From Oscillospiraceae bacterium (GTDB lineage Bacteria; Bacillota; Clostridia; Oscillospirales; CAG-382): a DNA stretch of 64,000 nt. This document shows, piece by piece, positions 10,765 through 55,548 of the stretch; position 1 is the first letter of the stretch; each line of letters begins with the position of its first letter. The translations under genes and the position numbers were made by a program. Below the pieces are notes generated by a model. It searched no databases. It saw only the letters and a list, made by a program, of their open reading frames with translations, and was not told the DNA's origin. Location of the stretch: positions 15,138 through 79,137 of the forward strand of contig SVRI01000009.1 of the NCBI GenBank assembly GCA_015064895.1, in the 5' to 3' direction.

Positions 10765-11249
10765 ATTTTTTCCCCTTTTCCAAAAAGATGATTTCAATAT
10801 GTTAATTACATATTCAACTGCAAAGTTACGTAAATTTCAAACACTTACCCACTATTCTATTTTATTTTATCACACATTTTGGAAGTTTACAAGGGATTTT
10901 TATGTTTTGAGGTAAAAAAATGAAGGATTAGGAAAAATCGTAAGACAAAAAAATACAGACATGTTTTTTTTAACCTATTATATAAACATTTTTCTTATAT
11001 GTTACTCTTTTTTCTGTACTTTTGTATCGACAAAAGTACCAAAAACGCCCACTCAAAAAGAAGGGATGGCTCGGTTGGGGTTATATATGAGCAAAAAAAT
11101 GCCGCATTCGACCATTAATGAGGTCAAATGCGGAGTTATTCTATAGTTTTAGTAAAGTGCTCCCAACCTCCGCTGACTTCCCTTCTTTCGCCGTGGCGGC
11201 TTATCTTCCCTCATTGGTGTGTGCTTTAAATGCAAAAAAGAGAAAGACA

Positions 11250-23917: not shown

Positions 23918-24895
23918 TTATTTCTCGTAAAAATCAACAAGTTTGCGAATATATGTTTCAAGGTTTTCGTCCTTACGTGTGAACAGGCAATGTCTTGCAC
24001 CTTTAATCATCACATATTCGCATCCAAGCAACTTCGCAAGCTTCTGCTGAGGCTTGACTTTTACGGAATTATCGTTCTCGGCACTTATCAAAAGAATTTG
24101 TGAATTCATTTTCTCTGTGGTTTTTTTGTTGAGAAGCTTGTATCTTACACCGAGAGTTTCATAATTCCATCTGTTCGACGAGCAGGAGTTTTGGTATCTA
24201 GGCTCATTGATTCTCATATTCAGATTGTAGAAGAATCTGGCTTCGCTTTCGTCTCCGCTGTTTTCGCTCTTTGCATTGGGTTTGAAATCAGACGAGTATT
24301 TGAGTCTTGCCTTCCAACCGTTTTTCTTGACGTCTCCTTTTATGAGAAAACGCAAAACACGACCGGGTATTTTCATGCAGACAGGATATACCAAGGGCGC
24401 CGAAAGTACTGTCTTTTCTATCTTATCTCCAGTCTGTGCAAGATACAGCGAAGCAACTGCACCCCCCATGGAATGGGAATATATATTTACAGGAATCCCC
24501 TCTGAGTTGGGTTTTACGATTTTATCCATAAAACACTGCAAATCGTATGCATAATCCTCGTACTTATCAACATGGGTAACTTGAAAATCTTCCACATCGC
24601 GGTGTGAATATCCGTGTCCGCGCTGGTCATATAAAAATATATTATACCCCATATTCATGAAATAACTGCCTATTTCATAGTATTTTTTCAAGAATTCGGT
24701 ATAACCGTGAACCATAACAATGCTTGCTTTCGGGTTTTCAACAAGGAAATATTCGTAATATATTTTTGCGTTATCAAAAGACTCGAAAAAGCCCTTGTTG
24801 CAGTATGTATCCAGCTCATTTACCAAATTCTGCATATGGTTTTCATAGTTTTCTTCGTCAATGAGGCTGAGTTTTCCTGATGGTTGATACAACAT
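23918..24895 (-). CDS. Alpha/beta hydrolase, lysophospholipase (PldB-like)
   Basis: VHGYTEF..KY.E, DQRGHGYS, SHSMGG, AEND, GARH. Confidence 0.88.
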   Translation of the reverse strand: MLYQPSGKLSLIDEENYENHMQNLVNELDTYCNKGFFESFDNAKIYYEYFLVENPKASIVMVHGYTEFLKKYYEIGSYFMNMGYNIFLYDQRGHGYSHRDVEDFQVTHVDKYEDYAYDLQCFMDKIVKPNSEGIPVNIYSHSMGGAVASLYLAQTGDKIEKTVLSAPLVYPVCMKIPGRVLRFLIKGDVKKNGWKARLKYSSDFKPNAKSENSGDESEARFFYNLNMRINEPRYQNSCSSNRWNYETLGVRYKLLNKKTTEKMNSQILLISAENDNSVKVKPQQKLAKLLGCEYVMIKGARHCLFTRKDENLETYIRKLVDFYEK

Positions 24896-24942: not shown

Positions 24943-25890
24943 GTGATACTAGTGACATCTTCAAAAAAGAAATCTTTATTAAAGGTCTTAAAGGTCAGTA
25001 TCATAATTGTTTTAGTTTTCATAACAGTTTCTATGATTGCAACGGTATTTATCTACAACGGTGTTTTTCAAACGTACCGTGAAAATACCGATAACATGTC
25101 CGTTGCCGTTTCCGCAGATGTTGCGAGTTACTCATCTCATGGCTATATGAGCGGTGAAAACAAGCTTTCAGGACATCTGTATGAAACAAATTCCGATTCA
25201 GTTATAATAATTATCCCCGGTTTTCATGCCGAAACAGATGCATTCATTCCGTATGTGGATGAATTCTGCCGTAACGGCTTTGACGTTTTCACCTTTGACT
25301 GCACAGGTCACGGTGAAAGCGGCGGCAATTCGTCGGTGGGATTTCCGCAGGTTATCAAGGACCTTGACGCGACACTTGAATATATCAGTGAAAAGTCGTC
25401 TTACAAAAACATCTATCTTTTCGGACACAGCCGCGGCGGTTATGCTGCCTGCTGTGCACTAAAAGACAACAAAAACATTTCAGCCGTTGTTTCCGTAAGC
25501 GGTGTCAACAGTGCCATGGACGGGATAATGGCATATTCAACAGACACCATAGGTCCCATTGCATACGGGAATTACCCCTTCCTGTGGATCTACCAATCCA
25601 TGCTTTTCGGCACCGAGCTTTCAAGCAGAAGTGCTTCAGACTGCATACAGGATACGGATGTTCCCGTGTTAATTATTCAGGGAAAGCACGATGAACAAAT
25701 TCCTTCAGACGATTTTTCAGTATATTCACACATGGAAGATGCTGATTCGTCAAACGCAAAGCTTGTTTTATATGACAATCCCGGATGTGACGGTCATACT
25801 ACCATACTTTTCCCGCAAGACGGCACTGCAAATCCCGATATTACAAGCTACGCCGTTAATTTTTTCAAAAACAATATTGCCAAGGAGTAA
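24943..25890 (+). CDS. Membrane-anchored alpha/beta hydrolase
   Basis: N-terminal TM, DCTGHGES, GHSRGG, QGKHD, DGH. Confidence 0.85.
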   Translation: MILVTSSKKKSLLKVLKVSIIIVLVFITVSMIATVFIYNGVFQTYRENTDNMSVAVSADVASYSSHGYMSGENKLSGHLYETNSDSVIIIIPGFHAETDAFIPYVDEFCRNGFDVFTFDCTGHGESGGNSSVGFPQVIKDLDATLEYISEKSSYKNIYLFGHSRGGYAACCALKDNKNISAVVSVSGVNSAMDGIMAYSTDTIGPIAYGNYPFLWIYQSMLFGTELSSRSASDCIQDTDVPVLIIQGKHDEQIPSDDFSVYSHMEDADSSNAKLVLYDNPGCDGHTTILFPQDGTANPDITSYAVNFFKNNIAKE

Positions 25891-26974: not shown

Positions 26975-27952
26975 TTATTCGGCGATTGCCTGTGCCACCT
27001 TTGCAGAGAATCCTCTGTCTTCAATACGAATTATCTGCCTGATGCAGGCACCGACAGTATCGGCTACCGCACAGCCGTGCATTTTGACTACCGTTTTTTT
27101 GAGCCCCAGGAAGGTTGCCCCTCCCCTTGTGTTGAAGTCAAACTTTTCCACGATGGCATTTCTGATGTTTTTACAAGCTTCACTACCGTCGGAATAACTG
27201 TCAATTATTCTGAGAGCCGCTCTTCCGCACTCCTCTGTGTTTTTAAGAAGAATGTTTCCCGTAAACCCGTCGGTAACAACAACATCAAGCTCAGTATCAG
27301 CAAGATCACTGCCCTCAACATTTCCGACAAAGTTAAGATCTAACGGTTTAATAAGCTCAAATGCAGCCTTTGTAAGGGTATTGCCTTTGCCGTCTTCACG
27401 ACCGACAGACATAAGTCCTACCTTGGGATGTTCTTCACCCAAAAGACTCTGCATAAATGCATTTCCCATTAGAGCGTATCTTTTCAAATCTTCGGGGGTA
27501 CATTCAACATTTGCTCCGCAGTCAACAAGACATACAAGTCCGTTCTTTCCGCAGGGAATTGCAGTAGAAAGTGCAGGAGCCATAAGTCCCTTTACAAGAC
27601 CCACTCTGAAAATCGAGCCCACCATGAGTGCACCCGTATTACCGGCACTTATCATGCCCATGACATCGTCGCTCTTTGAAAGCCTGTCAAGACTCATGAC
27701 CATGGATGTGTCATCCTTACCCTTGAACACGCACGTCGGCGGATCATCATTGGTGACATATTTATCGGTATGCACTATCTCAACTCTTGATTCATCGGTG
27801 CCGTATGTTTTCATCATGTCTCTGATAATTCGTTCGTCGCCCACAATGACAACATGCAAATCATCAATTTCCATGACTGCATCCAATGTACCTCGGATTA
27901 TTTCGACATGACCAATATCTGCACCGTATGTATCAACAATAATTTTCTTCAT
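26975..27952 (-). CDS. plsX: Phosphate acyltransferase PlsX (divergent)
   Basis: SAGNTGA, DCGANVEC, GKGN, FVGNVEG, VVTDGFTGNILLK..E, GGATFLGL...VVKMHG. Confidence 0.88.
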   Translation of the reverse strand: MKKIIVDTYGADIGHVEIIRGTLDAVMEIDDLHVVIVGDERIIRDMMKTYGTDESRVEIVHTDKYVTNDDPPTCVFKGKDDTSMVMSLDRLSKSDDVMGMISAGNTGALMVGSIFRVGLVKGLMAPALSTAIPCGKNGLVCLVDCGANVECTPEDLKRYALMGNAFMQSLLGEEHPKVGLMSVGREDGKGNTLTKAAFELIKPLDLNFVGNVEGSDLADTELDVVVTDGFTGNILLKNTEECGRAALRIIDSYSDGSEACKNIRNAIVEKFDFNTRGGATFLGLKKTVVKMHGCAVADTVGACIRQIIRIEDRGFSAKVAQAIAE

Positions 27953-27962
27953 ACAAACCCCG

Positions 27963-29603
27963 TTATTCAACCGCTATATAGAAATCGTATACCTTCTGAC
28001 CGCCGAAAATACATCCGGATTCCATATGGGGATAAATTTCCCCTATCCTTTCTATAAGCATGAGTGCTTCTTCTTCGGAAGCATCTTCGCCATAGAATAT
28101 TGTAAGAACTTCCTTATCTTCAACATCGGATATCTTTGAAATAAGACCGAGTGCCGCCGATATTTTATCAGCCGCCGCAAAACAAATCTTTCCGTCAAGG
28201 ACACCGATGTATTCCCCGCTGTCAACATGAACGCCGTCAACATCCGAGTCATGTACCGCCTGTGCAACAGAACCGGTAGCCACACTTTCAATGCCGTCCA
28301 CCATACCTGCGATGATTTCGTCGATATCATCGCTCCAGGGGTTGTACATGGAAAGTGCACTGTAGCCTTGAGCCATGGATTTGGTGGAAATCACCCTGAC
28401 ATCTGTCTTATCATACATCTTTGCTGCAAGCTCTGCTGTCATGACAATGTTGGAGTTATTTGGAAGAACAATAATGTGTTCTGCTTCAATTTCATCAAAT
28501 GCCGCAATAAACTCTTCTGCCGAAGGATTCTGAGTCTGGCCGCCGTCAATAATGGCAGTTGCCCCGATTTCGGAAAACAGCTCCTTAAAACCGTCACCCG
28601 AAGCAACGGCAACAATTGCATATTTGACTTTTTCTTTTTTCTTTGCCGGCTTTGCCTCAACACTTTCGTTGTGCTGAACCGACATGTTTTCTATTTTAAG
28701 TGTAATAAACTCACCGAACTGTCTTGCAAATCCGAGCGCCTTTTCGGGGGTAAAGGTATGAACATGAATTTTTACTACATCGTTATCTTTAACCGCAACA
28801 ATTGAGTCGCCTATTGTTTCAAGATAATCAATCAAAACCTTCACATCAAACGAAGCAATATCCGTCTTTGCATTCATGAGCTGAAGAATAAATTCTGTGC
28901 AGTACCCGTATTCAAGAACGCTGTCGGGTCCGAAAGATGAGGAAACAAATCCTGTCGAGAAATTATCCGCAGGCAAATCGGCCTCAATTCGGTTGCCCTT
29001 AAGATGGGAAAGCATGCCTTCAAATATTATAACCATACCTACTCCGCCGCTGTCCACAACTCCCGCTTCCTTTAAAACGGGAAGCATGTCAGGTGTTCTG
29101 GCAAGAGTATTCTTCATTTCGGTAATGACATAGCTGAGCATTGCATCAAAATCTTCAAAGTCATCATGGGCTTCAAGCTTTTCTACAGGTTCGCGTAAGC
29201 ATGTGAGCATGGTGCCTTCCGTAGGCTTTAATACGGAAGAATATGCACATTTTACACCCGATGCAAGCGCCTTACCAAAATCATTTACCGAAAGCTCAGC
29301 CTTGTTATCGGTACCATCGGAAATACCTCTGATAAACTGAGAGAGTATTACACCGGAATTACCTCGGGCAGACAAAAGAACTGCGCGGGAAAAAGTTTTC
29401 ATAAACTCTGACACATCCGACACCGGGTTTTCAACACCATTTACACCGCCGCCGATGGTTCTTGACATGTTTGTACCCGTATCTCCGTCGGGAACGGGGA
29501 AAACATTGAGTGAGTTTACTTCATTTTCGTTACGGCACAGATTTCTGTAGCCGTTGGCAAACATTTCTCTTAATGTCTGTCCGTCTAAACGAGTAATCGC
29601 CAT
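27963..29603 (-). CDS. fakA: DAK2-domain fatty acid kinase catalytic subunit
   Basis: LNVFPVPDGDTGTNM, ARGNSGVILSQ, EGTMLT, VDSGG, YGYCTEF, KIHVHT, GGQTQNPS. Confidence 0.93.
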   Translation of the reverse strand: MAITRLDGQTLREMFANGYRNLCRNENEVNSLNVFPVPDGDTGTNMSRTIGGGVNGVENPVSDVSEFMKTFSRAVLLSARGNSGVILSQFIRGISDGTDNKAELSVNDFGKALASGVKCAYSSVLKPTEGTMLTCLREPVEKLEAHDDFEDFDAMLSYVITEMKNTLARTPDMLPVLKEAGVVDSGGVGMVIIFEGMLSHLKGNRIEADLPADNFSTGFVSSSFGPDSVLEYGYCTEFILQLMNAKTDIASFDVKVLIDYLETIGDSIVAVKDNDVVKIHVHTFTPEKALGFARQFGEFITLKIENMSVQHNESVEAKPAKKKEKVKYAIVAVASGDGFKELFSEIGATAIIDGGQTQNPSAEEFIAAFDEIEAEHIIVLPNNSNIVMTAELAAKMYDKTDVRVISTKSMAQGYSALSMYNPWSDDIDEIIAGMVDGIESVATGSVAQAVHDSDVDGVHVDSGEYIGVLDGKICFAAADKISAALGLISKISDVEDKEVLTIFYGEDASEEEALMLIERIGEIYPHMESGCIFGGQKVYDFYIAVE

Positions 29604-29607
29604 TTAC

Positions 29608-30501
29608 TTATTTGTCGCTCCCTTCAACCGTAACTTCCTTACCAAAGCAATAAGCAGCCACGGTGCCGGGACCTACAGATGAGCCTACAATAGGGCCAAT
29701 ATAGCTTATTACAATTTCTTTAAAAGGTCTCAGCGCCAAAATGCGATCGCGTAAATCCTCTGCATCTTCAATACAATCGGAATGGGTGATGTACAGCCAA
29801 TCCATTCCGTTTTCAGAAGCCGCATCTGCAACAAGCTGAGCAACCCTGTTCTTTGCGTTGTTCAAACCCTTTACCTTTTCAACTGCAAAGTTCTGACCCT
29901 TGGTGTCGGAAATGATAATGGGCTTTACACCGAAAAGATTGCCGAAGAATGCACTGGAAGCAGTTACTCTGCCTGCTCTCTTGAGATATTTAAGATCTGC
30001 AACGGCACCAAACTGGTTGACCTTGAGCTTGTTATTTTCAAGGTATTCGGCAATTTCTTCAATGCTCTTTCCTTCACTTCTCATTTTTGATGCACATAGG
30101 CAGAGCCATCCCTGGCCGAGAGAAGAAATAAGCGAGTCAACGCAAACAACCTTGCCGTCGGGATACTTTTCCGCAAGCTCTTTGACAACCACTCTTGCGA
30201 GATTTACAGAGCCTGAAAGAGCGGATGAACATGAAATATAAAGCACATCCATACCTTGTTCAAGATAATACGTAAACTTTTCCGTATAGGCATTTATGGG
30301 AACCTGTGTTGTAGTAATGTGCTTACCCTGACGCAAAAGATCATACAGTTCCTTTGCAGAGTGATTTTCCCAGTCGAGTGATGCGGGATATTCAGTATCG
30401 TCAATTACGTAGTTCATGGGGACATAATCAATGTCATAACTATCTCTCAAATCTTTTACAAGATCACAAGTGGAGTCTGCAATGATTGCGAATTTTTTCA
30501 T
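29608..30501 (-). CDS. DegV family fatty-acid-binding protein (FakB)
   Basis: IADSTCDL, TTQ, SSALSGS, DS, L.YLKRAGR, VKPII, VGPG. Confidence 0.92.
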   Translation of the reverse strand: MKKFAIIADSTCDLVKDLRDSYDIDYVPMNYVIDDTEYPASLDWENHSAKELYDLLRQGKHITTTQVPINAYTEKFTYYLEQGMDVLYISCSSALSGSVNLARVVVKELAEKYPDGKVVCVDSLISSLGQGWLCLCASKMRSEGKSIEEIAEYLENNKLKVNQFGAVADLKYLKRAGRVTASSAFFGNLFGVKPIIISDTKGQNFAVEKVKGLNNAKNRVAQLVADAASENGMDWLYITHSDCIEDAEDLRDRILALRPFKEIVISYIGPIVGSSVGPGTVAAYCFGKEVTVEGSDK

Positions 30502-30521
30502 ATTATCTGTCTCCTATTTCA

Positions 30522-31466
30522 TTATTTCTTTTTAAGATCTGCGATAACCTCATTCATTGCTGCCTTTTCTGCTTCAAGGCCATCGGAAATCTTGTTTCCG
30601 CAGTAATATGCAGCATATAGGCCGGGGCCGATTGAAGAACCGCATGCCATACCTATACGGTTAAGAATTACTTCCTTGGGTTTAATTTCGTCCTTGATTC
30701 TCTGAACAAGTGTATCGGCAAATTCGGGACGGTTTGAATGAGCAACAAAAACAATCTGATTCTGGGGATCGACAATTGTACGCTTGATGTATTCAACGGT
30801 AGCGTCCATTGCCGACTGCTTGCCCTTAACCTTACCGATAATTTCCGTAAGACCCTGATTCGAGAAATCACCAAGGCAGTTTACTCCGACAAGCGTGCCG
30901 AAAAATGCCTTGAGATTTGAGATTCTTCCTGTTTTTACGGTAAAGAACAAGTCGTCAAGAGGGCCCATCTGGTGAACATGATATTTGAACTCGTTGAGAA
31001 ATTCTGCCGTTTCCTCGATTGTTGCACCCTCTGCACGTTTTTCACACGCCTTTACAAGCATAAATGCAATCGCCGAAGCATATCTCAATGAGTCAACACA
31101 GATAATCTTTCTTTCGGGGTACTTTTCCATAAGTTCCTTGGCAACAAGCAAGCTTGCCTGATATGCACCGGATATGCCGGAAGACAAGAGTACAAGGAGT
31201 ACGTCCTTACCTTCCTTGAGGAAAGGTTCAATTATTCTTATGGAGTCGCCGCGGGACGGAAATGCCGTTTTATATAACAACTTGTTTCCTGTCATGGACT
31301 CATAGTATTCTTCGGGAGTCATTTCTTTCCAGTCGGGATCAGAATATGTCTGTCTTCCGTCGGGCGTATAAAGGATACCGGGCAAATATGCGTCTATACC
31401 GAATCGTTCTCTTAATTCGGCACTGACATCACTTGCCGAGTCTGAAATTATTGCAAAGTTTGACAT
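30522..31466 (-). CDS. DegV family fatty-acid-binding protein (FakB), divergent paralog
   Basis: ISDSASD, KTA, SSGISGA, DSLR, TGRIS, IGPG. Confidence 0.9.
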   Translation of the reverse strand: MSNFAIISDSASDVSAELRERFGIDAYLPGILYTPDGRQTYSDPDWKEMTPEEYYESMTGNKLLYKTAFPSRGDSIRIIEPFLKEGKDVLLVLLSSGISGAYQASLLVAKELMEKYPERKIICVDSLRYASAIAFMLVKACEKRAEGATIEETAEFLNEFKYHVHQMGPLDDLFFTVKTGRISNLKAFFGTLVGVNCLGDFSNQGLTEIIGKVKGKQSAMDATVEYIKRTIVDPQNQIVFVAHSNRPEFADTLVQRIKDEIKPKEVILNRIGMACGSSIGPGLYAAYYCGNKISDGLEAEKAAMNEVIADLKKK

Positions 31467-31616
31467 AAGCCAACCTCCTCGGTTAATAAATTATTATTAA
31501 TTATATCATATAATATGACATTTTTCAACATTTTTTTAAAAAAAGTAGTGCATTTATGTTTTTCTTGTGATATAATGTAGTATATTTTAGTATATGTTTA
31601 TATTTTGGAGGGCAAA

Positions 31617-32573
31617 ATGACTGTATTTTTAATAGTTCTTGCAGTGGTTCTTGTTTCATTAATAGGCGGGCTTGTTGTCATGCTTTCAAAAACAGTACCG
31701 ATAGCAAACAGAGTATATCAGACACAATTGGTACGTACAACCCCTGACAAATGGGGCAGAGTATGTTCAGCACCCGACAACGAAGAACAGCTTGCAATGT
31801 GGCATGCCGGCATCGAATGGGCAAACCAAAACAAAGAATGTATGAAAGAAGTTTCAATAACCAATGACGGACTTCGTCTTTGCGGCGAATACTACGACTT
31901 CGGCTCGGATAAATGCGTCATCATATCCCCCGGCAGATGTGAATGTCTCATGTATTCCTACTATTTTGCTTCTCCCTACAAAGAGGCAGGTTTAAATGTT
32001 CTTGTTGTAGATTCCAGAGCACACGGACACAGCCAGGGTACACATTCCACAATCGGTGTAAAGGAATCGGGCGACATCAAGGCGTGGATGAAGTACATAG
32101 AAAGAGAATACGGCATTAAGGAAATCTGGATTCACGGTATATGCATAGGCAGTGCCTCTGCCCTCTTTATTGCAAGCGGCAGCGACTGTCCCGAAACCCT
32201 TAAAGGTATTGTCACCGAAGGATGCTTTACAACCTTCAGAGAAACCTTCAAGCAGCACATGGTTTATGACAAGAGGCCCTTATTCCCCGTACTTGATCTT
32301 GTTATGCTCAACATTAAAAAACACGCGGGTGTCAATGTTCTCAAGCAGTCACCCATCAAGGTGATTGACAAGGTAAATTGCAGAATGCTTTTCCTTTTTG
32401 GCAAAAAGGATGTATTTTCCCTTCCTCCAAAGAGCCAGATTCTTTTTGACAAGTGTTCCTCAAAGGACAAAAAGCTTGTCTGGTTTGACAAGGGCGGTCA
32501 TTCTCATCTCAGAATCAACAATACAGAAAAGTACGACAGCGAAATCGTAAAATTCGTAACCAATGAACAGTAA
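31617..32573 (+). CDS. Membrane-anchored alpha/beta hydrolase with G-x-C-x-G nucleophile elbow
   Basis: N-terminal TM, DSRAHGHSQG, HGICIG, GKKD, GGHSH. Confidence 0.85.
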   Translation: MTVFLIVLAVVLVSLIGGLVVMLSKTVPIANRVYQTQLVRTTPDKWGRVCSAPDNEEQLAMWHAGIEWANQNKECMKEVSITNDGLRLCGEYYDFGSDKCVIISPGRCECLMYSYYFASPYKEAGLNVLVVDSRAHGHSQGTHSTIGVKESGDIKAWMKYIEREYGIKEIWIHGICIGSASALFIASGSDCPETLKGIVTEGCFTTFRETFKQHMVYDKRPLFPVLDLVMLNIKKHAGVNVLKQSPIKVIDKVNCRMLFLFGKKDVFSLPPKSQILFDKCSSKDKKLVWFDKGGHSHLRINNTEKYDSEIVKFVTNEQ

Positions 32574-33426
32574 ATACGCATTTTTTACAATAGACGTAGA
32601 AAGCTTTTCCGACACGGAATGTGTTGCGGGATCGGGATACTGTTCGAAGGATGACATGCTTGACGGCCTGCAGACTTATATTGATGTTCTTAACAAATAC
32701 AACATAAAGGCAACAATGTTCACACTAAAGGATGTGGCATCAAAATACAAGGGGCTCTTGTCAGAGTTCATATCCGGCGGGCACAAGCTTGCCCTTCACG
32801 GCAACAGACATGTTCCCATGATTGACATGCCGTTATCCCGGTTCAAAAGAGAAACGATACATGCAAAAAACGTACTTGAAGACATCTTCGGAGTAAAAGT
32901 GCGTGGCTTTCGTGCCCCGTTTTTCAGCATGGACAGAGCAAGACTGGACATTTTGCAGAGCCTCGGCTTTCTCTATGATTCGAGTCTTACCGAGTTTTCC
33001 CACGCAAGACACACGACACATGTAAATCTTGACGGATTTTCCAATCCTCAGGGCAGGATTTTTGTCAAGGACGGGTTCTATGAATTCGGTAACTCGGTGG
33101 AAAAAGTATTTGACAGCTCATTTCCCATATCCGGCGGCGGATACATGAGGCTGTCGCCCTGGTTCTTTTCCGGGTCGCTTCTCGGCAAGCATCTCAAAAG
33201 AAATGATTACTATATGTTTTATCTTCATCCCTTTGAGCTTTCAAACCACAAAATGCCCTACATAAAGAATCTCAAAATTCATGATATGATTTATCTTTAC
33301 AGCGGGATTTCAGGTTACAAGACAAGGCTTGAAAGAATAATAGACAATCTTACAAAAGAAGGCTACACATTTTCTACATTTGAAGATGTTGCCGAAAAAA
33401 ACATGTTTAATCAAAAAACGGAATGA
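32563..33426 (+). CDS. Polysaccharide deacetylase (CE4, DUF3473-type)
   Basis: FTIDVE, ATMF, LHGNRH, GFRAPFFS, YDSS, SGGGYMRL, FYLHPFE. Confidence 0.88.
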   Translation: MNSKYAFFTIDVESFSDTECVAGSGYCSKDDMLDGLQTYIDVLNKYNIKATMFTLKDVASKYKGLLSEFISGGHKLALHGNRHVPMIDMPLSRFKRETIHAKNVLEDIFGVKVRGFRAPFFSMDRARLDILQSLGFLYDSSLTEFSHARHTTHVNLDGFSNPQGRIFVKDGFYEFGNSVEKVFDSSFPISGGGYMRLSPWFFSGSLLGKHLKRNDYYMFYLHPFELSNHKMPYIKNLKIHDMIYLYSGISGYKTRLERIIDNLTKEGYTFSTFEDVAEKNMFNQKTE

Positions 33427-33432
33427 GTTTGC

Positions 33433-33843
33433 TCATTCCGTTTTTTTTAGTTTGTTACGTATTGTTTCTCTGACACCATCGAGAAAGGACTTCTTTTCCC
33501 CAAAACAACAGCCGTAAACAAAGTGCTCACAGTTGTTATGAAGAATATGATATCCCGTCTCACCGACATGCGACATTGCTTCTGAAACAATATCATCTGC
33601 CTTTCGGTATGTTCTTTTTTCCTCTGCCGTTTCACAAATTCCCGTCTCAACAAAACCGCCGTTTGCAAAAACATCAATATCTGTAATCAGAACCCTGATT
33701 TCTTCGGGCGGTGTTGTTCCGTTATCGGGAAGTCCGAATTGTATTACAGTCTGTTCGTCAACAAAAATGCCGTAGTGGTAATAAAACTTTACCTGCGTTC
33801 TTACGATACTGCCTCTTACGGGTTGGTCCTGTGTCCAGCGCAT
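33433..33843 (-). CDS. LRAT/PLAAT-like (permuted NlpC/P60) protein
   Basis: HYGIFV...VIQF and YHILHNNCEHFV signature. Confidence 0.88.
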   Translation of the reverse strand: MRWTQDQPVRGSIVRTQVKFYYHYGIFVDEQTVIQFGLPDNGTTPPEEIRVLITDIDVFANGGFVETGICETAEEKRTYRKADDIVSEAMSHVGETGYHILHNNCEHFVYGCCFGEKKSFLDGVRETIRNKLKKTE

Positions 33844-33846
33844 GTC

Positions 33847-34083
33847 TTACAACCTGCCTTCCACTTTGGCAATTACATCCGCAACCTTATTGAGTTTTGG
33901 GAAATCTTCATTCGAAAACTGTACCGAATACTTTTCTTCAAGTATCATTGCCACATAAAGCATACCGATGGAATTGAGTCCGACATCCTTTCTGAGATCC
34001 GATTCCTCGTTAATTCCCTCAAGATTTATTTCATACGGCAAAGCTGTCTTTAACACATTCTTTAATTCATCAACCGTTATCAC
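33847..34083 (-). CDS. Acyl carrier protein
   Basis: Small acidic protein, DLRKDVGLNSIGMLYVAMILEEKY; GGAGG RBS before GTG 34083 (alternative ATG 34110). Confidence 0.88.
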   Translation of the reverse strand: MITVDELKNVLKTALPYEINLEGINEESDLRKDVGLNSIGMLYVAMILEEKYSVQFSNEDFPKLNKVADVIAKVEGRL

Positions 34084-34738
34084 TGCTTTTTCCTCCAAAT
34101 TCTTTTTCATAAAGGCTTCTGCACTCCATCATGCTGTCAAACACCTTCTGTGTCGCCTTTTCTATATCATTCATCGACGGCATACCGCTATCGGAAATGT
34201 GCTCGGTTACGGGATTGCCTATAACCACGCAATTTCTTTTATCGGAAGAATCCCTGTTGTGTATATACAGCGGTATGACAGGAACCTTTGCCTGCATTGC
34301 CATAAGAATTGCTCCCGACTTTATTCCCTGCATTTCGTCCTCACGGTTGATTCCGCCCTGAGGAAATATTGTGACAGTATGACCTTCCTTAAGCAGGGAT
34401 ATAGTTTTTCTTATGGCTTCCATATCGCATATGTTTCTGTCAATTTCAATGCATCCCATAGCTTTGAGAAGCTTACCGAAGCCCTTCTTTTTCATGACCA
34501 CCTCTGCAGCAAGATAGAACATCCTGCGGTACCAGAAGGTACATCCCACAATAAGGGGGTCTGAAAAACCCGAGTGATTGGCAACTACAACCGCACCCGT
34601 GCGAAGTTTTTTCTTTGCTTCGGGAGAAAGGTATCTTCTTCGAACATTAAACCATATATACATGGGTGCACACAAGAAACGCCCCGCATCCATGGGAAAG
34701 TGTTTTATATCAAACAATTTCGGCTTATTCTGATTCAC
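34070..34738 (-). CDS. 1-acyl-sn-glycerol-3-phosphate acyltransferase (PlsC-like)
   Basis: ANHSGFSD (HX4D), IDR, IFPQGG, KSGA, PVIP. Confidence 0.9.
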   Translation of the reverse strand: MNQNKPKLFDIKHFPMDAGRFLCAPMYIWFNVRRRYLSPEAKKKLRTGAVVVANHSGFSDPLIVGCTFWYRRMFYLAAEVVMKKKGFGKLLKAMGCIEIDRNICDMEAIRKTISLLKEGHTVTIFPQGGINREDEMQGIKSGAILMAMQAKVPVIPLYIHNRDSSDKRNCVVIGNPVTEHISDSGMPSMNDIEKATQKVFDSMMECRSLYEKEFGGKSSDNG

Positions 34739-35403
34739 TTTTTGGACTTCCTCGCTTCCAGTATATCTTTTAACTCAAAAGTCTTTTCCTCAAGCAATTC
34801 CAAAAGCTTCTGTCTTTGCTCTTTGGTGGGATTTTCATTATCACAGTAATCTCTGAGATAAATAGGCTCGCCTATAATAAAATGTGCTCTCTTGGTAATG
34901 CCGTAATTTCCGTCGGTATACACAGGAACAATTGGAGCATCCGTTCTGAGTGCCACGGCAACAATACCGGGTTTAAACGGGAATCGGCAACCGTTTACCG
35001 GCAAACGTCCCTGTGGGAATACGCCTATTCTTCCGTTTTTGTCGAGCACTTCAAGGCTGTCTTCCACAAATCCGAAATCGCAGGTATCTCTGTTTATGTA
35101 GATGCCGCCGATTTTGAACAGAAACCAGGAAAAAAGTCTGCCTTTATTGAAAAGCACTTCAGCCATCCAGAACCTTAATGTACAAAAAGGAAACGACATT
35201 AAATAGAGTACAAAGTCCATGAGCGATGTATGATTGGACATAAGTATACAGGGCTTTGGCAAACCGCCCTTGAATGCATTCTTGTTGACATAGTGTTTTT
35301 TAGGCTTGAAAAACAGCATTGCCGGCACATATCCGGTGATTTTTACAAATGCAAGAAACAGTCTGCTTACATTACTCTTTTTTATCAAACTCTTTTTTAA
35401 CAT
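34735..35403 (-). CDS. 1-acyl-sn-glycerol-3-phosphate acyltransferase (PlsC-like), second copy
   Basis: SNHTSLMD (HX4D), INR, VFPQGR, FKPG, PIVP; ATGA overlap with the next gene. Confidence 0.9.
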   Translation of the reverse strand: MLKKSLIKKSNVSRLFLAFVKITGYVPAMLFFKPKKHYVNKNAFKGGLPKPCILMSNHTSLMDFVLYLMSFPFCTLRFWMAEVLFNKGRLFSWFLFKIGGIYINRDTCDFGFVEDSLEVLDKNGRIGVFPQGRLPVNGCRFPFKPGIVAVALRTDAPIVPVYTDGNYGITKRAHFIIGEPIYLRDYCDNENPTKEQRQKLLELLEEKTFELKDILEARKSKK

Positions 35404-35405
35404 GT

Positions 35406-37316
35406 TTATATTTGCCTTTCTATATATTGACACATTTCATGCACTGTATATCGAAATGTGTCGGATTCTCCCGCTTTTACGGAGAAATTTTCCGCCAATG
35501 CGGAAAGAATGGAGAAATACTGCATACTTGTCGCACCAAGGTCAAGCATAATATGTGAGTGAATATCTATATCCTCCGCCGAAATGCCAAGCTCGAAAGC
35601 CACTATTTCTTTAACGCTATTCAAAAGTTCAGCACTGTATTCGGTATTGTCAACCCAAGCGTTTTTATAATTTTCAAACGGAAAGATACAGATGCTGCCG
35701 TTTTCTATTCCGCCGGAAAGGTACTTCCTGCCGACTTTCACTGCATTTGCAGGTGCAATCGGATCGGTTGTGAAATAAAATCTCGAAACTCTTGAAGTTA
35801 TTGGGAGGCTGTTATTTATTTCATAAATCTTCTGTGCAAGAGCGTTCCTCTTTACATCCGACATATAGCGGCTGATTTGTACAACCATAGAAACCGTTTC
35901 CTTGTCGCAGTCTTTGAGACCAAGCACACAGTAATTTTCTGCTTCGGCAAGGACAAACTGTTTCTCAATAACATCAGGATTTATGTTTTCGCCGTTTTCT
36001 CCTATAATAACGTCGCCAAGCCTTCCGATTATGTAGTATGAACCGTCTCTGTATTCAACTTTATCACCGGTGTTGAACCATTCACCCATCGGCACCTCTT
36101 TCCCTTCGATCATAAGACGGTGGCAGACAGAGTTTCCTTTTACATGAAGAATGCCGTCGTCATCTATCTTATATTCCACCGAGGAAAAAGGCAAGCCTAT
36201 AGCATTCCGGTTTGTGTTTTTCGGACCGCATCTAAGCTCTACCGACGTTATACCGATTTCGCTCATGCCGTAACCGTTGTGAAGGTTGTAACCAAGTCCG
36301 TTTATCAGTTCAAGTGCAGAATTTCTTACATAGCTTCCGCCGTTAATGCAGAACCGGATACTCTGACCAAAAAGCTCATCCGTTACTTCATGCATGATTC
36401 TCTGCGAAAGCTTAATACCAATATGCGGAAAAATATTCTGAAGCTTTGTGCAGAATTTTATGCCGTTTTCAAATTTCTTTTGCTTCTTTTCACCCTTCAA
36501 AGCAACCTTTTTTTGAACTTCTGTCTCAATCGTATGCCACAAAAGCGGCACTGCAAACACGTGAGTTACCTTATGTTTGCGACAGGTTTTGAGAATGGTA
36601 TCAGAGCTGTAATCCTTCATGAAAACTACGGCAACACCGTAAAAGGAAAACCAAAAATAGACAGCAATCAGACCAAAAACGTGATAAAACGGCAAAAAAG
36701 CCAACTGCTTGATTTCACCATCATAATCACCGGCAATTTCAGGATATTTTTCGATAAACCCGTTTACATTCAGAATCTGTGCACAAAACTCTTTGCCGGA
36801 ATAAAAGCAAATTACGTCTTTAAGAGAGGTTGCTGATGTGGAAAGTGCTATTTCATCTGCAAAACTGCACTTCAAATCGCCGTCTTCATTTAAATCACAA
36901 ATGTCCACAAACTTTCCGTCCAGCTGTGTTTTGTTTTTGCCGACTATATATTCAATACCGAGTGTGGAAAGCATTTTTTGAGACAAAGCTTTGGGGTGAC
37001 GGCAGTTGACAAGATACGGTTTGTTACCGCTTCTGAGAATTGCCCAGAAAGCAATAATCCATTCGACACAGTTTTCCATTTCCAGTGCCACGTATTCACC
37101 CTGTACACCGATTCTTTTACTAAGAGCAAAAGCAGCTCTTTCGATTCTTTGCTTTGTTTCAGCAAACGTAATCTTTTTTACTCGGAAACCATCGGTATAT
37201 TCTGCCATGACACCGCGATTTTCAAACATGACATTATATATTGCTTCAAAATTTTTCGACGATGACTGTAAGGCATCGCTGTTGCATTTTAAAACATGCT
37301 TCAGTTCTTTGCGCAT
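35406..37316 (-). CDS. AMP-binding (acyl-CoA/ACP ligase-like) protein fused to C-terminal carrier domain
   Basis: FLPFYHVFG, AVPLLW, NGYGMSE, FNTGD, IIGR.....I...GENINP..IE; C-terminal DLGATSMQY carrier motif; degenerate P-loop STSATSLKD. Confidence 0.87.
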   Translation of the reverse strand: MRKELKHVLKCNSDALQSSSKNFEAIYNVMFENRGVMAEYTDGFRVKKITFAETKQRIERAAFALSKRIGVQGEYVALEMENCVEWIIAFWAILRSGNKPYLVNCRHPKALSQKMLSTLGIEYIVGKNKTQLDGKFVDICDLNEDGDLKCSFADEIALSTSATSLKDVICFYSGKEFCAQILNVNGFIEKYPEIAGDYDGEIKQLAFLPFYHVFGLIAVYFWFSFYGVAVVFMKDYSSDTILKTCRKHKVTHVFAVPLLWHTIETEVQKKVALKGEKKQKKFENGIKFCTKLQNIFPHIGIKLSQRIMHEVTDELFGQSIRFCINGGSYVRNSALELINGLGYNLHNGYGMSEIGITSVELRCGPKNTNRNAIGLPFSSVEYKIDDDGILHVKGNSVCHRLMIEGKEVPMGEWFNTGDKVEYRDGSYYIIGRLGDVIIGENGENINPDVIEKQFVLAEAENYCVLGLKDCDKETVSMVVQISRYMSDVKRNALAQKIYEINNSLPITSRVSRFYFTTDPIAPANAVKVGRKYLSGGIENGSICIFPFENYKNAWVDNTEYSAELLNSVKEIVAFELGISAEDIDIHSHIMLDLGATSMQYFSILSALAENFSVKAGESDTFRYTVHEMCQYIERQI

Positions 37317-37457
37317 AATCCTAATCATCTCCATGTTTTCGCAAAGTGTGAACAACTGCACAACTAACTAGTTTATTATATCACATCTTTCCCGAAAAAG
37401 CAACAAAAAGATGTGTCTTTCGACACATCTTTCGCTACTTAAATATTATACTGGTTT

Positions 37458-38042
37458 TTATATGCCGTAATAACCTAAATCCATACCCAAATCGATACCT
37501 ACAGCCAACATGATAATTGAAAGGAAAAGACCGACACCGCAAACAATTACACCGATAAGACCTGTAATCTTTGCCGCCTTTGTCATACCGTTACACGTAC
37601 CTCTTTCGATTGCTTTCTTCGAAAGAATCATGGCTGCAATACCCGATGCAAGGGATTCAATTCCAATGCCCCATGTAACAGAGAAAAACATAGGCATAAC
37701 AGAAGCGAAGGCATATATAAGTGTCAGCAACGCACCGACTGCACAGTTAATGCCGAGTGCCATGCCGATGATTGCCATAACCTTACCGCCCTTTGAAGGC
37801 TGTACTTCAGGTGTGGCATACATGGGTGCAGGTGTGGGCTGAGCATACGCAGTTCCTGTGTAAACGGGTGCTGCGGGAGCTACAGGGGTAGCAGGTGCCG
37901 CAGGAGCAGCGGGTGCCGCAGGGGCAACGGGTGCTGCAGGAGCAACGGGTGTGTTAGGCTTTAAAACTTTACCGCAGCTTTTACAAACTGCAGGTACTTC
38001 GGAGTCCTGATAGGGTGCTCCGCAATTACCGCAAAAATACAT
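37458..38042 (-). CDS. Zinc-ribbon + Pro/Ala-rich linker + multi-TM (DUF4190-like) protein
   Basis: MYFCGNCG...CKSCG, (PVAPAA)n repeats, three hydrophobic helices; AGGAG RBS. Confidence 0.8.
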   Translation of the reverse strand: MYFCGNCGAPYQDSEVPAVCKSCGKVLKPNTPVAPAAPVAPAAPAAPAAPATPVAPAAPVYTGTAYAQPTPAPMYATPEVQPSKGGKVMAIIGMALGINCAVGALLTLIYAFASVMPMFFSVTWGIGIESLASGIAAMILSKKAIERGTCNGMTKAAKITGLIGVIVCGVGLFLSIIMLAVGIDLGMDLGYYGI

Positions 38043-38306
38043 AATATCTCTCCTTATTATCCGGAAAACCTCCGGTACTTGACTAAAGTATATCACATAC
38101 TTTTGCAAAAATCAACAATTATTTTGATGTTTCGCTAAAATCATCCATAATTACGTTGACTTTTAGGTAACTCTGCAAAAAACAACACATCTCATGCAGA
38201 AAACGCCAAAAAACATCTAAAAATGTTGAATAATTATACAAAAAGCTATTGATTTTTCAGAAAATATGTATTAAAATGAAAATAAAGAAAGAGTGAGGTG
38301 TAAAAG

Positions 38307-38796: not shown

Positions 38797-39582
38797 GTGC
38801 TCAAAAGGATTATGTGTATAATTTTTTCATTGACGGTATTTTTAGCGGCAATGAGTTTTTCGGCATTTGCCGTCGGCGAAACGGATAAAAGCCACGATTA
38901 CATTATACATGGCGGCGGAAAATACAAAGGTCATGCCGCCACCAACAGTCTGGATGCCCTTGAAAACGCATATGCCGCAGGCAACAGATATATTGAGCTT
39001 GATTTCAATTTCACCCATGACCTTCGTCCCGTTTGCATACATGACTGGAATTATTTATCATATTCGGGATATGACGGCAAACGCCCCACCCTCAAAGAAT
39101 TTTCTCAAAACACGGTTTACAGTTCATTTAAGTCCATGACTCTTGAAGATGTTGCCGACTATATGAGAAAGCACAAAGATTTGTATATTATAACGGATGT
39201 AAAGGACTTAAACATCTACTTCATGGGAATAATCCAAAGGGAATTTCCCGACCTCAGAAACAGGTTTATCGTTCAGGTCTATTCGGAGATTGAATACAGC
39301 TTTGCAAGCCGTATGAAATTTGACAAAATCATCTTTTCCCTGTACAAGCTCGATTGGAACAGCAAGACAAACACAAACAGGCTGGTTGAATTTGCAAAAA
39401 ACCACCGTCTTTACGGATACACGTTCCCATCGTCTCTTTGCGATATAGACGGATATGTTGACAAAATGCTGGAAAGCAACACAAGGCTCTTTGTTCACAC
39501 GGTGAATGACAAATCCGAACAGCAAAAGTATTTCGATATGGGAATCTCGGGCGTATATACCGATAATGTAACGCATAATTGA
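38797..39582 (+). CDS. Secreted glycerophosphodiester phosphodiesterase-like protein
   Basis: Signal peptide ending AFA, IHGGG, TNSLDA, IELD, CIHDW, ITDVK, HTVND, GVYTD. Confidence 0.85.
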   Translation: MLKRIMCIIFSLTVFLAAMSFSAFAVGETDKSHDYIIHGGGKYKGHAATNSLDALENAYAAGNRYIELDFNFTHDLRPVCIHDWNYLSYSGYDGKRPTLKEFSQNTVYSSFKSMTLEDVADYMRKHKDLYIITDVKDLNIYFMGIIQREFPDLRNRFIVQVYSEIEYSFASRMKFDKIIFSLYKLDWNSKTNTNRLVEFAKNHRLYGYTFPSSLCDIDGYVDKMLESNTRLFVHTVNDKSEQQKYFDMGISGVYTDNVTHN

Positions 39583-43694: not shown

Positions 43695-44318
43695 TTATTT
43701 TACCAGTTCAAAAGCCTTCATCCATGCTCTCTTAATAAGCTCATGGCCTGCTTCTGTAGGATGAACGCCCTCGTTTGTCCAATAGGGTTCGGGGTGTCTT
43801 TGGGTAGCCTTGTCAAACTCGCTCTGAAGGTCTACAAACACACAACCGTGTTTTTCGGCAAGACGTTTTGCGGTTTCTGCTCTCTTTTTTGTTTCGGGTC
43901 TGAAAACGTCCCATGCCGCCTCTGTAGCACGTCCCTTTGTAACGAATGCACCGAGAAGAATGATTTTAATATTGGGAAGAGCCTCTTTTATTTCCGAAAG
44001 AAGCATATCATAAATCTTTTCAAACTTTTCCGCATCAACGCCGTTCTGCATTTCAACTTCATGCCAGACATCATTGACACCGATATGTATGCTGAGAACA
44101 TCCGGCTTTAAGTTTATAAAATCGGCCTTGATTCTTGCGTAAAGGTCAACAACTCTGTTGCCTGAAATTGCTCGGTTTATAAATTCATATTCTCCGGGAT
44201 GTTCAAAATTCAGTTCGCCCGTAATTCTTAAAGGATATCCGTTTCCTTTAAATCCGTCATGGTCTCTGCTTCTTCCGCAGTCTGTAATGGAATCTCCCTG
44301 AAATAAAATTCTTGTCAT
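43695..44318 (-). CDS. SGNH/GDSL esterase
   Basis: FQGDSIT, ISGN, GVND, EGVHP. Confidence 0.92.
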   Translation of the reverse strand: MTRILFQGDSITDCGRSRDHDGFKGNGYPLRITGELNFEHPGEYEFINRAISGNRVVDLYARIKADFINLKPDVLSIHIGVNDVWHEVEMQNGVDAEKFEKIYDMLLSEIKEALPNIKIILLGAFVTKGRATEAAWDVFRPETKKRAETAKRLAEKHGCVFVDLQSEFDKATQRHPEPYWTNEGVHPTEAGHELIKRAWMKAFELVK

Positions 44319-44332
44319 TGTCTTTTCTCCTT

Positions 44333-45367
44333 TTATATATACAAATCGTGTTTTTCTTCTTGTATACCCAGCGTCCTTGCAACAAGCGAGCCGATTTTAT
44401 CCGCCATTCTCATAAAGCCTATGTCATTGGGGTGACAGCCGTCAAAGGTGCAGGCTGTATAGAATTCGCCCTCAAAAAGAGTTTTGCCGTCGATGAGGTG
44501 TACGTTTTTATCTCCCTGAGCTTTTGCATATTCAAAGTTCTTTGAAATAACATCAAATCTGCGTCTTGCATCATAGGGGTCCTTGAAGCAATCGGGCTTT
44601 GACACCATAATATAGGGAATATCGGGGTGTTTTTCTCGGATTGTCTTGTACATTTCAAGATGTGTTTCTTCCAGGTACTCATATGTATGTGCATTATGGT
44701 CATAGTCGCACACAAAGCAGGACATATCAAGAGATGCCATATAGTCGCATATCGCCTTTTCGCCCTTGGCACTGCCCGAAAGACCGAGGTTTATATAGTC
44801 AAGACCGTATTTCTGAGATATAAGCGAGGTATACGCCATACCGGGACGGGAAGCAAGTCCGCCGTTGGTAATTGACGAGCCGTAGAAAACGACAGGCTTA
44901 GTATATTTATAAGCAATTCCCTTGCCGAGCTCTGCATCCTTTTCAATGCCGAGTTCGACATCTTCTATAAAGGCAAAGCAGGGGAAATTGAGTGTATAAT
45001 ACTGCCATTTTCTATCCCTCTGAACCATGCCTTCGCCGATTCTTGCAGAAAATTCGCCCTCATGCACACCGTAGAATGTATCTCTGTAGCCTGCGGCAAA
45101 GTATTCCTTTCCCGTCTTTTCATCGACTCTGTAAAGGTCAAAGTTCATATCCCAATGAAGCGTCATCTTTGCACGGACAACAATTATATTGGAGTTTGTC
45201 GAAAATCTCGCTCTGCCGCCTGCCGAGTATTTTGCGACAATCTTACCAAGGTCTGTCATGCCCTCTGTCACGCTGTCGGGCAGACGCTTATATTCCTCGT
45301 CCATGTTGTATATATCAAAGTTTTCTTTTGTTACCTTGTACCACTTTATGTTGCTGTAGTCTTCCAT
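44333..45367 (-). CDS. SGNH hydrolase with GxDLY-type N-terminal domain
   Basis: SAGGRARFSTNS, FDLY, FYGSSIT, NLGLSGSA, DYDHN, DGCHP. Confidence 0.88.
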   Translation of the reverse strand: MEDYSNIKWYKVTKENFDIYNMDEEYKRLPDSVTEGMTDLGKIVAKYSAGGRARFSTNSNIIVVRAKMTLHWDMNFDLYRVDEKTGKEYFAAGYRDTFYGVHEGEFSARIGEGMVQRDRKWQYYTLNFPCFAFIEDVELGIEKDAELGKGIAYKYTKPVVFYGSSITNGGLASRPGMAYTSLISQKYGLDYINLGLSGSAKGEKAICDYMASLDMSCFVCDYDHNAHTYEYLEETHLEMYKTIREKHPDIPYIMVSKPDCFKDPYDARRRFDVISKNFEYAKAQGDKNVHLIDGKTLFEGEFYTACTFDGCHPNDIGFMRMADKIGSLVARTLGIQEEKHDLYI

Positions 45368-51458: not shown

Positions 51459-51471
51459 AAAAATCACTTTC

Positions 51472-52041: not shown

Positions 52042-52052
52042 ATTCTTTCCCC

Positions 52053-55528: not shown

Positions 55529-55548
55529 ATCGGCATCCTCCAAAGCTG

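Follow-up and report, generated by a model that had tools for sequence, protein, structure and literature searches.

The 64-kb window analysed here (the whole stretch of 64,000 nucleotides from contig SVRI01000009.1 of an Oscillospiraceae bacterium) carries a five-gene operon encoding a ligase-carrier fusion protein, two PlsC-type acyltransferases, a standalone acyl carrier protein (ACP) and a 136-aa thiol enzyme of the LRAT/PLAAT family. We interpret this operon as the core of a conserved module for the assimilation or remodelling of exogenous lipids in gut Clostridia that mostly lack fatty acid synthesis, resembling a split Escherichia coli Aas/LplT system to which a thiol enzyme has been added, and we assign a probability of about 0.5 to this interpretation. 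At the level of the module as a whole, a role in the salvage or remodelling of exogenous lipids is probable. As regards the LRAT-family protein itself, a function as a phospholipid deacylase or transacylase is predicted tentatively, a function on carrier thioesters instead is predicted somewhat more tentatively still, and a function of some other kind is unlikely.

The five genes form a single operon (Table 1). The stop codon of the ligase gene and the ATG of PlsC1 are separated by 2 nt, and PlsC1 and PlsC2 share a stop/start overlap with the sequence GTGA, both as read directly from the DNA. PlsC2 and the ACP gene overlap by 14 nt if translation of the ACP begins at the GTG and by 41 nt if it begins at the ATG, and a gap of 3 nt lies between the ACP stop codon and the LRAT ATG. 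The operon is bracketed on both sides by terminator-like hairpins. The probable extended -10 element upstream of the ligase gene is missing from the list produced by the consensus scan because its -35 region fits only 3 of 6 positions. All five proteins exceed the Pfam gathering cut-offs, and Pfam reported no Condensation domain in them or in the 45 other window proteins that were scanned. A previous sequence-only reading of this DNA had described five packed minus-strand genes, their domain content and the lack of a condensation domain, and each of these statements was borne out: the open reading frames (ORFs) lie at the coordinates it gave, the gaps measure 2-3 nt or are overlaps, and the expected motifs are present. 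Moreover, the gene arrangement is far beyond chance, and the identical gene order recurs in the genomes of other species.

Table 1. Features of the operon and of its surroundings; coordinates are positions in the 64-kb window
Feature	Position	Strand	Remarks
Ligase-carrier fusion (ligACP)	35406..37316	-	636-651 aa; in-frame alternative starts 37328, 37334, 37361
PlsC1, PlsC-type (lysophospholipid acyltransferase, LPLAT) acyltransferase	34735..35403	-	222 aa; HX4D = HTSLMD
PlsC2, PlsC-type (LPLAT) acyltransferase	34070..34738	-	222 aa; HX4D = HSGFSD
Standalone ACP	33847..34083	-	78 aa from GTG start behind GGAGGA; ATG alternative at 34110 gives 87 aa
LRAT/PLAAT-family permuted NlpC/P60 thiol enzyme	33433..33843	-	136 aa; YHYGIF and NNCEHFV
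Probable extended -10 element TGaTATAAT	37375..37383	-	upstream of ligase gene; spotted by eye
Bidirectional terminator-like hairpin, 15-pair stem with T/A runs	33413..33446	.	common to operon 3' end and convergent deacetylase gene
Hairpin with T-run, terminator-like	37433-37406		closes gene upstream of operon
fakB-fakB-fakA-plsX2 operon	26975..31466	-	Pfam: DegV x2, Dak2 + FakA-like_M + FakA-like_C, FA_synthesis
Alpha/beta hydrolase with N-terminal hydrophobic anchor	31605..32573	+	Pfam Hydrolase_4 1.2e-11
Sfp-type 4'-phosphopantetheinyl transferase (PPTase)	23243..23848	-	Pfam ACPS + AASDHPPT_N; genome's only PF01648 match
Lysophospholipase L2 (PldB)-like alpha/beta hydrolase	23918..24895	-	adjoins PPTase
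Another hydrolase	24943..25890		
PlsY	9958..10797		
Carbohydrate esterase family 4 (CE4) deacetylase	32563..33426		convergent with operon
GDPD gene	38797..39582		

Judged by sequence and predicted structure, the 136-aa protein is a true member of the LRAT/PLAAT family that has kept the putative catalytic His/Cys dyad, as the sequence-only reading had proposed from the NCEHF signature. It matches Pfam PF04970 with 9.3e-17 and 61.9 bits (cut-off 24.3). In an alignment of 25 homologues, H23 and C105, the latter within NNCEHF, are invariant, and Q35 is conserved in at least 90% of the sequences. The profile built from this alignment retrieved human PLAAT3 (4dot) from the PDB with 7.7e-11, along with other HRASLS/LRAT entries, and in the profile match H23, Q35 and C105 align with His23, His35 and Cys113 of PLAAT3. 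An AlphaFold2 model (mean pLDDT 85.7, pTM 0.77) led to the same group: the top seven Foldseek hits are PLAAT3, PLAAT4 and HRASLS2, with E values from 3e-6 to 2.7e-4 and target-normalised TM scores of 0.68-0.81. The protein contains neither a signal peptide nor a transmembrane segment, and its C-terminus is a charged basic helix (residues 120-134, ...RETIRNKLKKTE) that looks amphipathic by eye. The window also encodes a second LRAT-domain protein of 777 aa (61153..63486, minus strand). Its LRAT domain (residues 68-204) shows the full His/His/Cys pattern (HFGIY...VIHY...NNCEHF) and is fused to an Amidohydro_3/Amidohydro_1 metallo-hydrolase, whose leading NCBIfam match is PRK09061 ('amidohydrolase family protein', 6.4e-37, under the cut-off). 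From its domains, this protein is possibly an enzyme that handles N-acyl amides.

The other four proteins also match Pfam families. The ligase-carrier protein matches AMP-binding (PF00501, 1.2e-32) and PP-binding (8.9e-6), and among 70 aligned homologues the motifs GYGM(S/T)E and GRxxD and the C-terminal Lys (K..R) are conserved, the Gly of TGD is variable and the carrier Ser is present in at least 90%. PlsC1 and PlsC2 match PF01553 with 9.5e-17 (61.5 bits) and 1.5e-22 (80.2 bits), respectively, at a cut-off of 23, and PlsC1 is conserved across 76 aligned sequences. On TIGR00530, the model for 1-acylglycerol-3-phosphate O-acyltransferase, the two proteins reach 50.1 and 77 bits and stay under the cut-off of 102.95; this test is weak because the separate PlsC that the genome encodes beside cmk/ispH also falls short, with 91.1 bits. 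The second-best NCBIfam rows of both proteins are acyl-[ACP]-phospholipid O-acyltransferase models. Motif III (FPxG) was considered as a clue to the acceptor of PlsC1 and PlsC2; it proved to be uninformative, as the canonical PlsC of the genome likewise has FPQG. The standalone ACP matches PP-binding (PF00550) with 1.1e-6, the two carriers of the operon score 29.2 and 26.3 bits at a cut-off of 20.8, and all 29 aligned homologues of the ACP have the attachment Ser38. The Aas models PRK08633, PRK06814 and PRK08043 give 14-53 bits with the operon proteins at cut-offs of 886-1349.

The operon is widely conserved. One genome per prokaryotic species was scanned with a degenerate pattern, which revealed at least 520 places that encode a relative, and the best 80 were examined for gene content by local tblastn with the window proteins and the proteins of a variant locus. 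All 80 loci belong to metagenome-assembled genomes (MAGs) or isolates of Clostridia, with Acutalibacteraceae, Oscillospiraceae, Christensenellaceae and Lachnospiraceae among the carrier lineages. The sequence-only reading had staked its proposal on LRAT being conserved beside ACP and PlsC genes, and this is what was found. The ACP gene lies directly upstream of the LRAT gene in 75 of the 79 loci with at least 300 nt of upstream sequence; the exceptions are L037, L055, L061 and L070, and a standalone ACP is absent in L055 and L070, where there is no room for it, and was not detected in L061. Moreover, the complete order ligase-PlsC1-PlsC2-ACP-LRAT occurs in 44 of 45 loci that have a short LRAT protein and at least 3.7 kb upstream, and in 14 of 17 loci that have a long one and at least 7 kb upstream. 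In four genomes (G125, G177, G202 and G273), more remote LRAT homologues with 25-29% identity have none of the partner genes alongside; the linkage is therefore a property of this LRAT subfamily.

The survey uncovered two architectures. The short LRAT protein of the window type (119-146 aa) was found in 54 of the 80 loci, whereas the other 26 encode a long form (279-353 aa) in which, according to a Pfam analysis of L073, the LRAT domain is fused to a PPTase domain. H23 and C105 are invariant in these 26 fusions, too. In their alignment, the Sfp-type motifs are kept in 22 proteins, and the second half is truncated and degenerate in the remaining four. The latter (LRAT ORFs of 279-286 aa in L060, L071, L072 and L074) lack the metal-site and WxxKE motifs of the PPTase half and retain an intact LRAT half, and their genomes encode ketoacyl synthases (KAS) of the type II fatty acid synthesis (FASII) kind and a separate PPTase of 204-261 aa. 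The architectures also differ in their accessory genes. A second, carrier-less ligase precedes the ACP gene in 20 of 26 fused loci vs 3 of 54 short-LRAT loci, while a second plsX gene follows fakA in 28 of 54 short-LRAT loci vs none of the 26 fused ones. In 18 of 26 fused loci, an MFS_2 transporter of the major facilitator superfamily (MFS) is encoded, its gene being located within the operon or else between those for FakB and FakA; among the 54 short-LRAT loci, 21 have a separate Sfp-type PPTase gene next to the operon. Fatty acid kinase (Fak) genes are present in 50 of the 80 loci; in L107, for instance, the genes for ligase, PlsC1, PlsC2, ACP, LRAT, FakB1, FakB2, FakA and PlsX2 follow each other in this order, nine contiguous genes on one strand. 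The transporter has a shorter relative (441-498 aa, about 32% identical to the in-operon form of 625-662 aa) that adjoins the fak genes, lying between fakB and fakA in L053, L059, L061, L064, L067, L070 and L080 and after fakA in L056. This position suggests a lipid or fatty acid as the cargo.

The fusions are not confined to the surveyed loci. An exhaustive HMMER search with the LRAT profile against 1.84 billion representative sequences yielded 889 proteins at E<=1e-10. Among the best 150 of these, 108 contain a PPTase part, as judged by a hidden Markov model built from the fusions, 34 have no such part and at most 200 aa, and 2 are long eukaryote-like repeat proteins. A fusion of PlsC and LRAT domains (PF01553::PF04970) was seen in one representative, P0270. 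In the ESM Atlas, an LRAT+ACPS cluster with 155 members and an Acyltransferase+LRAT cluster with 52 members, both bacterial, were found.

The genome to which the window belongs (G000, 2.28 Mb, 98.26% complete) gave no match for KAS, FabA/FabZ or FabD. It encodes PlsY, two PlsX proteins, a canonical PlsC, two further ACPs, six strong acyl-CoA-ligase-like proteins and an Acyl-ACP_TE thioesterase. From this gene content, the organism appears to be auxotrophic for fatty acids. In an even sample of the class, the LRAT profile found a match in just 7 of 300 genomes, and a strong one in 2 of these, which is too few for a contingency test; therefore, the genomes of the carriers themselves were used. 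Fifty were chosen from the 80 loci for their long flanks, and in 40 of these no match to PF00109, the KAS family, was obtained at E<=0.001. The carrier genomes measure 1.3-3.0 Mb, and the module is single-copy and syntenic. Matches to the PPTase family PF01648 were evaluated for 37 of the 50 genomes: 36 have a match and 30 exactly one, and in 12 genomes of the fused type the single match lies in a frame of 333-410 aa that is the LRAT::PPTase protein itself. Elsewhere in G000, contig C24 (L098:1426-3407) carries a gene for a long-chain-acyl-CoA-ligase-like protein directly followed by that of an 82-aa ACP, and on contig C32 (L084, L094) a weak PF01553-like gene is located about 2 kb from another ligase gene. 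These may be further sets of ligase, carrier and acyltransferase genes.

The window is a lipid island (Table 1). PlsX2, encoded in the fak operon, scores 258 bits on TIGR00182 and thus exceeds the cut-off of 243.4. The PldB-like hydrolase beside the PPTase matches PRK10749 with 1.2e-32 over residues 34-325 of 325 (113 bits, under the cut-off of 362) and recurs as 'abH_c' in many related loci. The anchored alpha/beta hydrolase (31605..32573) is a recurrent partner, too. Under the designation 'abH', its gene heads the operon in L016, L022, L039 and L040, immediately before ligACP and in the same orientation.

By analogy, the closest working counterpart of the module is the Aas/LplT system of E. 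coli. In this system, an acyl-ACP synthetase feeds a PlsC-type domain, and imported lysophospholipid is reacylated with acyl-ACP (accessible sections of PMC11416262). The module is predicted to follow the same logic, from an adenylate-forming enzyme via a carrier thioester to the transfer by a PlsC-family enzyme to a lysophospholipid, and in the fused-LRAT architecture an MFS transporter gene likewise lies within the operon. Unlike in Aas, the domains are distributed over separate proteins and doubled: there are two PlsC proteins, and of the two carriers one is fused to the ligase. Unlike LplT, the transporter is MFS_2/GPH-like. The module further includes an LRAT-family enzyme and a PPTase, and its hosts are Gram-positive-type Clostridia. 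The FakAB-PlsX-PlsY-PlsC route of the Firmicutes is the second point of reference, as two fakB genes, fakA and a second plsX are found in genomic linkage with the operon; however, this route itself needs one PlsC, no ligase and no LRAT protein, and G000 has the complete canonical set elsewhere. The additional ACP is reminiscent of AcpB from Enterococcus faecalis, an auxiliary ACP for exogenous fatty acids and a substrate of PlsX (accessible sections of PMC6509188), which is likewise an extra ACP in the context of exogenous fatty acids.

For the thiol enzyme, the animal PLAAT/HRASLS and LRAT proteins are the nearest models. They take an acyl chain from a phospholipid to form an acyl-Cys intermediate, which is hydrolysed or transferred to an acceptor (PMC7387801 and PMC12994826, as far as their text is accessible). 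The bacterial protein shares with them the Pfam family, the fold, the permuted order of His and Cys and the NCEHF motif. It differs in that it lacks the C-terminal anchor, has Gln, or in some fusions Ala, in place of the second His, and is encoded together with carrier proteins and often fused to a PPTase or PlsC domain. Permuted NlpC/P60 proteins that act on lipids or transfer acyl groups have also been described from bacteria, namely LnsA, which takes part in the N-acylation of lipoproteins in Staphylococcus aureus, and YiiX/Tox-Act1 (same two sources, within the same limits). In these descriptions, LnsA is secreted, resembles the family remotely and pairs with a CPBP membrane protein, and Tox-Act1 is a secreted toxin, whereas the window protein is predicted to be cytoplasmic, is a true PF04970 member and belongs to a carrier-protein operon.

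From these comparisons, a mechanism can be proposed. According to its domains and conserved motifs, the ligase would adenylate a scavenged fatty acid and then hold it in thioester linkage on the carrier domain of the same protein. The standalone ACP would be primed by the neighbouring or fused Sfp-type PPTase and loaded either from acyl-phosphate, by FakAB and the second PlsX in the architecture of the window, or by the carrier-less ligase in the fused architecture; we infer these two ways of loading from the observation that loci with the second ligase and loci with PlsX2 complement each other. PlsC1 and PlsC2, going by their family, would then transfer the carrier-bound acyl chains to lyso-glycerolipid or glycerol-phosphate acceptors. 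Finally, Cys105 and His23 of the LRAT protein could take an acyl chain as acyl-Cys, most likely from a phospholipid in the manner of a phospholipase A1 or A2 (PLA1/2), leaving a lyso-acceptor behind, and the chain would be released or passed on. The result would be an exchange of acyl chains resembling the Lands cycle, which would be the only means by which a cell lacking FASII could adjust its acyl composition. The acyl-Cys chemistry of the family and the PlsC::LRAT fusion favour the LRAT protein as the deacylation or transacylation partner of the PlsC enzymes. The presence of two FakB proteins, two carriers and two PlsC proteins invites a two-lane model, in which the lanes would separate saturated from unsaturated chains or sn-1 from sn-2. 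Selectivity of FakB proteins for particular chains is known from work on S. aureus.

Several observations weigh against the interpretation of the operon as a lipid assimilation module with a PLAAT-like enzyme. The assigned enzyme activities are predictions from sequence. The ligase is divergent: in NCBIfam it comes closest to models for long-chain fatty-acid-CoA ligases and MenE, with every row far under the cut-off, its best PDB match is MenE (4.5e-10), and the P-loop, which reads SSGTS..K in the fused-LRAT architecture, is degenerate (STSATSLK) in that of the window. Therefore, a fatty acid is an assumed substrate. The second His of PLAAT3 (His35) has not been kept as the third residue of the triad, the position being occupied by Gln35 in at least 90% of the 25 aligned homologues and by Gln in 19 and Ala in 7 of the 26 fusions; by eye, the tail of the LRAT protein has no hydrophobic segment that could correspond to the C-terminal membrane anchor of PLAAT enzymes. 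The MFS transporter gave no PDB match by sequence or profile. As G000 already possesses a complete FakAB-PlsX-PlsY-PlsC route and an acyl-ACP thioesterase, the need for the module is also not obvious. Furthermore, 10 of the 50 carrier genomes do have a KAS match, one of which is weak and partial. The share of genomes without KAS, 80% among the carriers vs 33% in the even class sample (300 genomes at least 90% complete, 200 with PF00109 at E<=1e-20 and 100 without), is suggestive only, since related genomes are not independent, the thresholds differ and the carriers are MAGs of unstated completeness. Finally, the adjacency of the ACP gene and the fusion to the PPTase fit an LRAT protein that acts on carriers as well as, or better than, a phospholipase.

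The last point leads to the strongest of the alternatives, namely that the LRAT enzyme is directed at the carrier. It would then be a proofreading thioesterase that frees the ACP or the ligase carrier from unsuitable or mis-primed acyl groups blocking it, or a third acyltransferase, acting terminally, that takes the chain over from ACP and delivers it to an N- or O-acceptor. The ACP gene ends 3 nt before the LRAT gene and keeps this neighbourhood in 75 of 79 loci, the enzyme is fused to the PPTase, which docks on the same carriers (26 of 80 loci, 108 of the best 150 representatives), and editing would be useful in cells without FASII, in which an unsuitable acyl-ACP could not be elongated. However, the genome already encodes an Acyl-ACP_TE family thioesterase, the LRAT protein occurs without a standalone ACP in L055 and L070 and without a detected one in L061, and the PlsC::LRAT fusion connects it with the step of lipid acylation. 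Fusion to the only PPTase of the cell may, moreover, reflect a linkage merely at the level of the pathway, and the acyl donors of the characterised relatives are phospholipids rather than thioesters in the accessible parts of PMC7387801 and PMC12994826. Taken together, this alternative is possible but rather unlikely. The terminal transferase or acyl editor that the sequence-only reading had suggested survives in it, while the fusions with PlsC and PPTase point at least as strongly to the predicted deacylation or transacylation partner. The two ideas could also be combined. LRAT, carriers and PlsC proteins would then form an ATP-sparing transacylation machine independent of coenzyme A (CoA), in which an acyl chain moves from a scavenged phospholipid via acyl-Cys to the phosphopantetheine thiol of an ACP freshly primed by the fused or neighbouring PPTase and from there via PlsC to another lipid; we regard this as improbable.

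More doubtful still is a reading of the operon as a small biosynthetic cluster that makes some specialised lipid (for example, a signalling lipid, an N-acyl amide or a glycolipid with extra acylation) and has no part in bulk membrane metabolism. Fatty-acid-amide clusters of gut Clostridia contain adenylation, carrier and condensation domains. The operon has in common with them the adenylating enzyme, the carriers, the Sfp-type PPTase, the lipid accessory genes and the gut-clostridial host; a ligase-carrier didomain, an extra ACP and a PPTase of this type are usual in such clusters. A CE4 deacetylase gene and a gene for a family 2 glycosyltransferase (GT2) recur nearby and could supply an amino-sugar acceptor, and the second LRAT protein of the window carries the amidohydrolase fusion. 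In contrast to the amide clusters, PlsC-type transferases and the LRAT protein replace the condensation domain, and the operon is linked with fak and plsX genes. No condensation, ketosynthase or other tailoring domains are present among the scanned window proteins, the PPTase is the sole one in most carrier genomes, and the module is single-copy and syntenic in small genomes. A glycolipid route, in which GT2 and the deacetylase would act before N-acylation by LRAT, was set aside, as the GT2 resembles a polyprenyl-phosphate glycosyltransferase and the deacetylase is found in a minority of loci. The comparison with fatty-acid-amide clusters, which the sequence-only reading had drawn, fits poorly with an operon that lies amid fakB-fakB-fakA-plsX, lysophospholipase-like hydrolases and the only PPTase of a host without FASII. 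Thus, the observation made in that reading has been confirmed and its interpretation partly supported. Primary lipid assimilation is preferred over a specialised product because the partners of the operon handle exogenous fatty acids and (lyso)phospholipids, the PPTase is the only one of the cell and most hosts lack FASII.

Very improbable is the acylation of an envelope polymer (teichoic acid, polysaccharide or exosortase-type exopolysaccharide) in the manner of Dlt or of the exosortase-A-linked sets of ligase, ACP, hydrolase and deacetylase: although the deacetylase matches TIGR03006 (XrtA-system deacetylase) with 2.8e-37, two hydrolases match TIGR03100 weakly and LtaS-like and Acyl_transf_3 genes lie in the window, all the TIGR03006 and TIGR03100 matches are far under the cut-offs, the transferases are PlsC-type and neither MBOAT nor DltB, and the deacetylase is no constant partner, a role that falls to fatty acid kinase genes and lipases.

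To our knowledge, no function has been assigned to bacterial members of the LRAT/PLAAT family. The new component described here is a bacterial LRAT-family thiol enzyme, often fused to PPTase or PlsC, that is predicted to take part in the carrier-dependent acylation of lysolipids or glycerolipids. If the transacylation from LRAT to ACP were true, it would be the first function of a bacterial LRAT-family enzyme and a new route to acyl-ACP, and it would provide fatty-acid-auxotrophic gut Clostridia with a bacterial Lands cycle for tuning their membranes. The module may be central to the building of membranes from dietary and host lipids in these abundant and mostly uncultured bacteria. Five small genes and a PPTase are a tractable set for studying acyl-chain remodelling without FASII, new acyl-ACP routes and PLAAT-type chemistry as it existed before animals. 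No published account of the gene set or of the LRAT-PPTase fusion was found in the full-text literature, subscription papers and supplements being outside its coverage, which agrees with the statement of the sequence-only reading that no such bacterial pathway was known to it. A survey of gut microbial lipid genes from 2026 names fakA and fakB2, and in the accessible main text of this survey LRAT, PLAAT, PlsC, acyl carrier and lysophospholipid do not occur (PMC13761379).

Some further genes in the surroundings of the operon deserve mention. Just upstream of it, at 37458..38108 on the minus strand, lies the gene for a zinc-ribbon protein whose linker is rich in Pro and Ala and whose C-terminal part contains hydrophobic segments; a gene of this kind ('Znrib+') is again found upstream of the ligase in many of the loci with a short LRAT protein. 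On the 3' side of the variant operon, a DUF7575/DUF4190 protein is encoded at L073:10142-10654. The window also contains an unusually dense group of four SGNH/GDSL lipase-acylhydrolase genes (43695..45367 and 54485..56592, minus strand), three of which encode a GxDLY N-terminal domain, and, together with these, two large genes for ATP-binding cassette (ABC) exporters (49275..54350).

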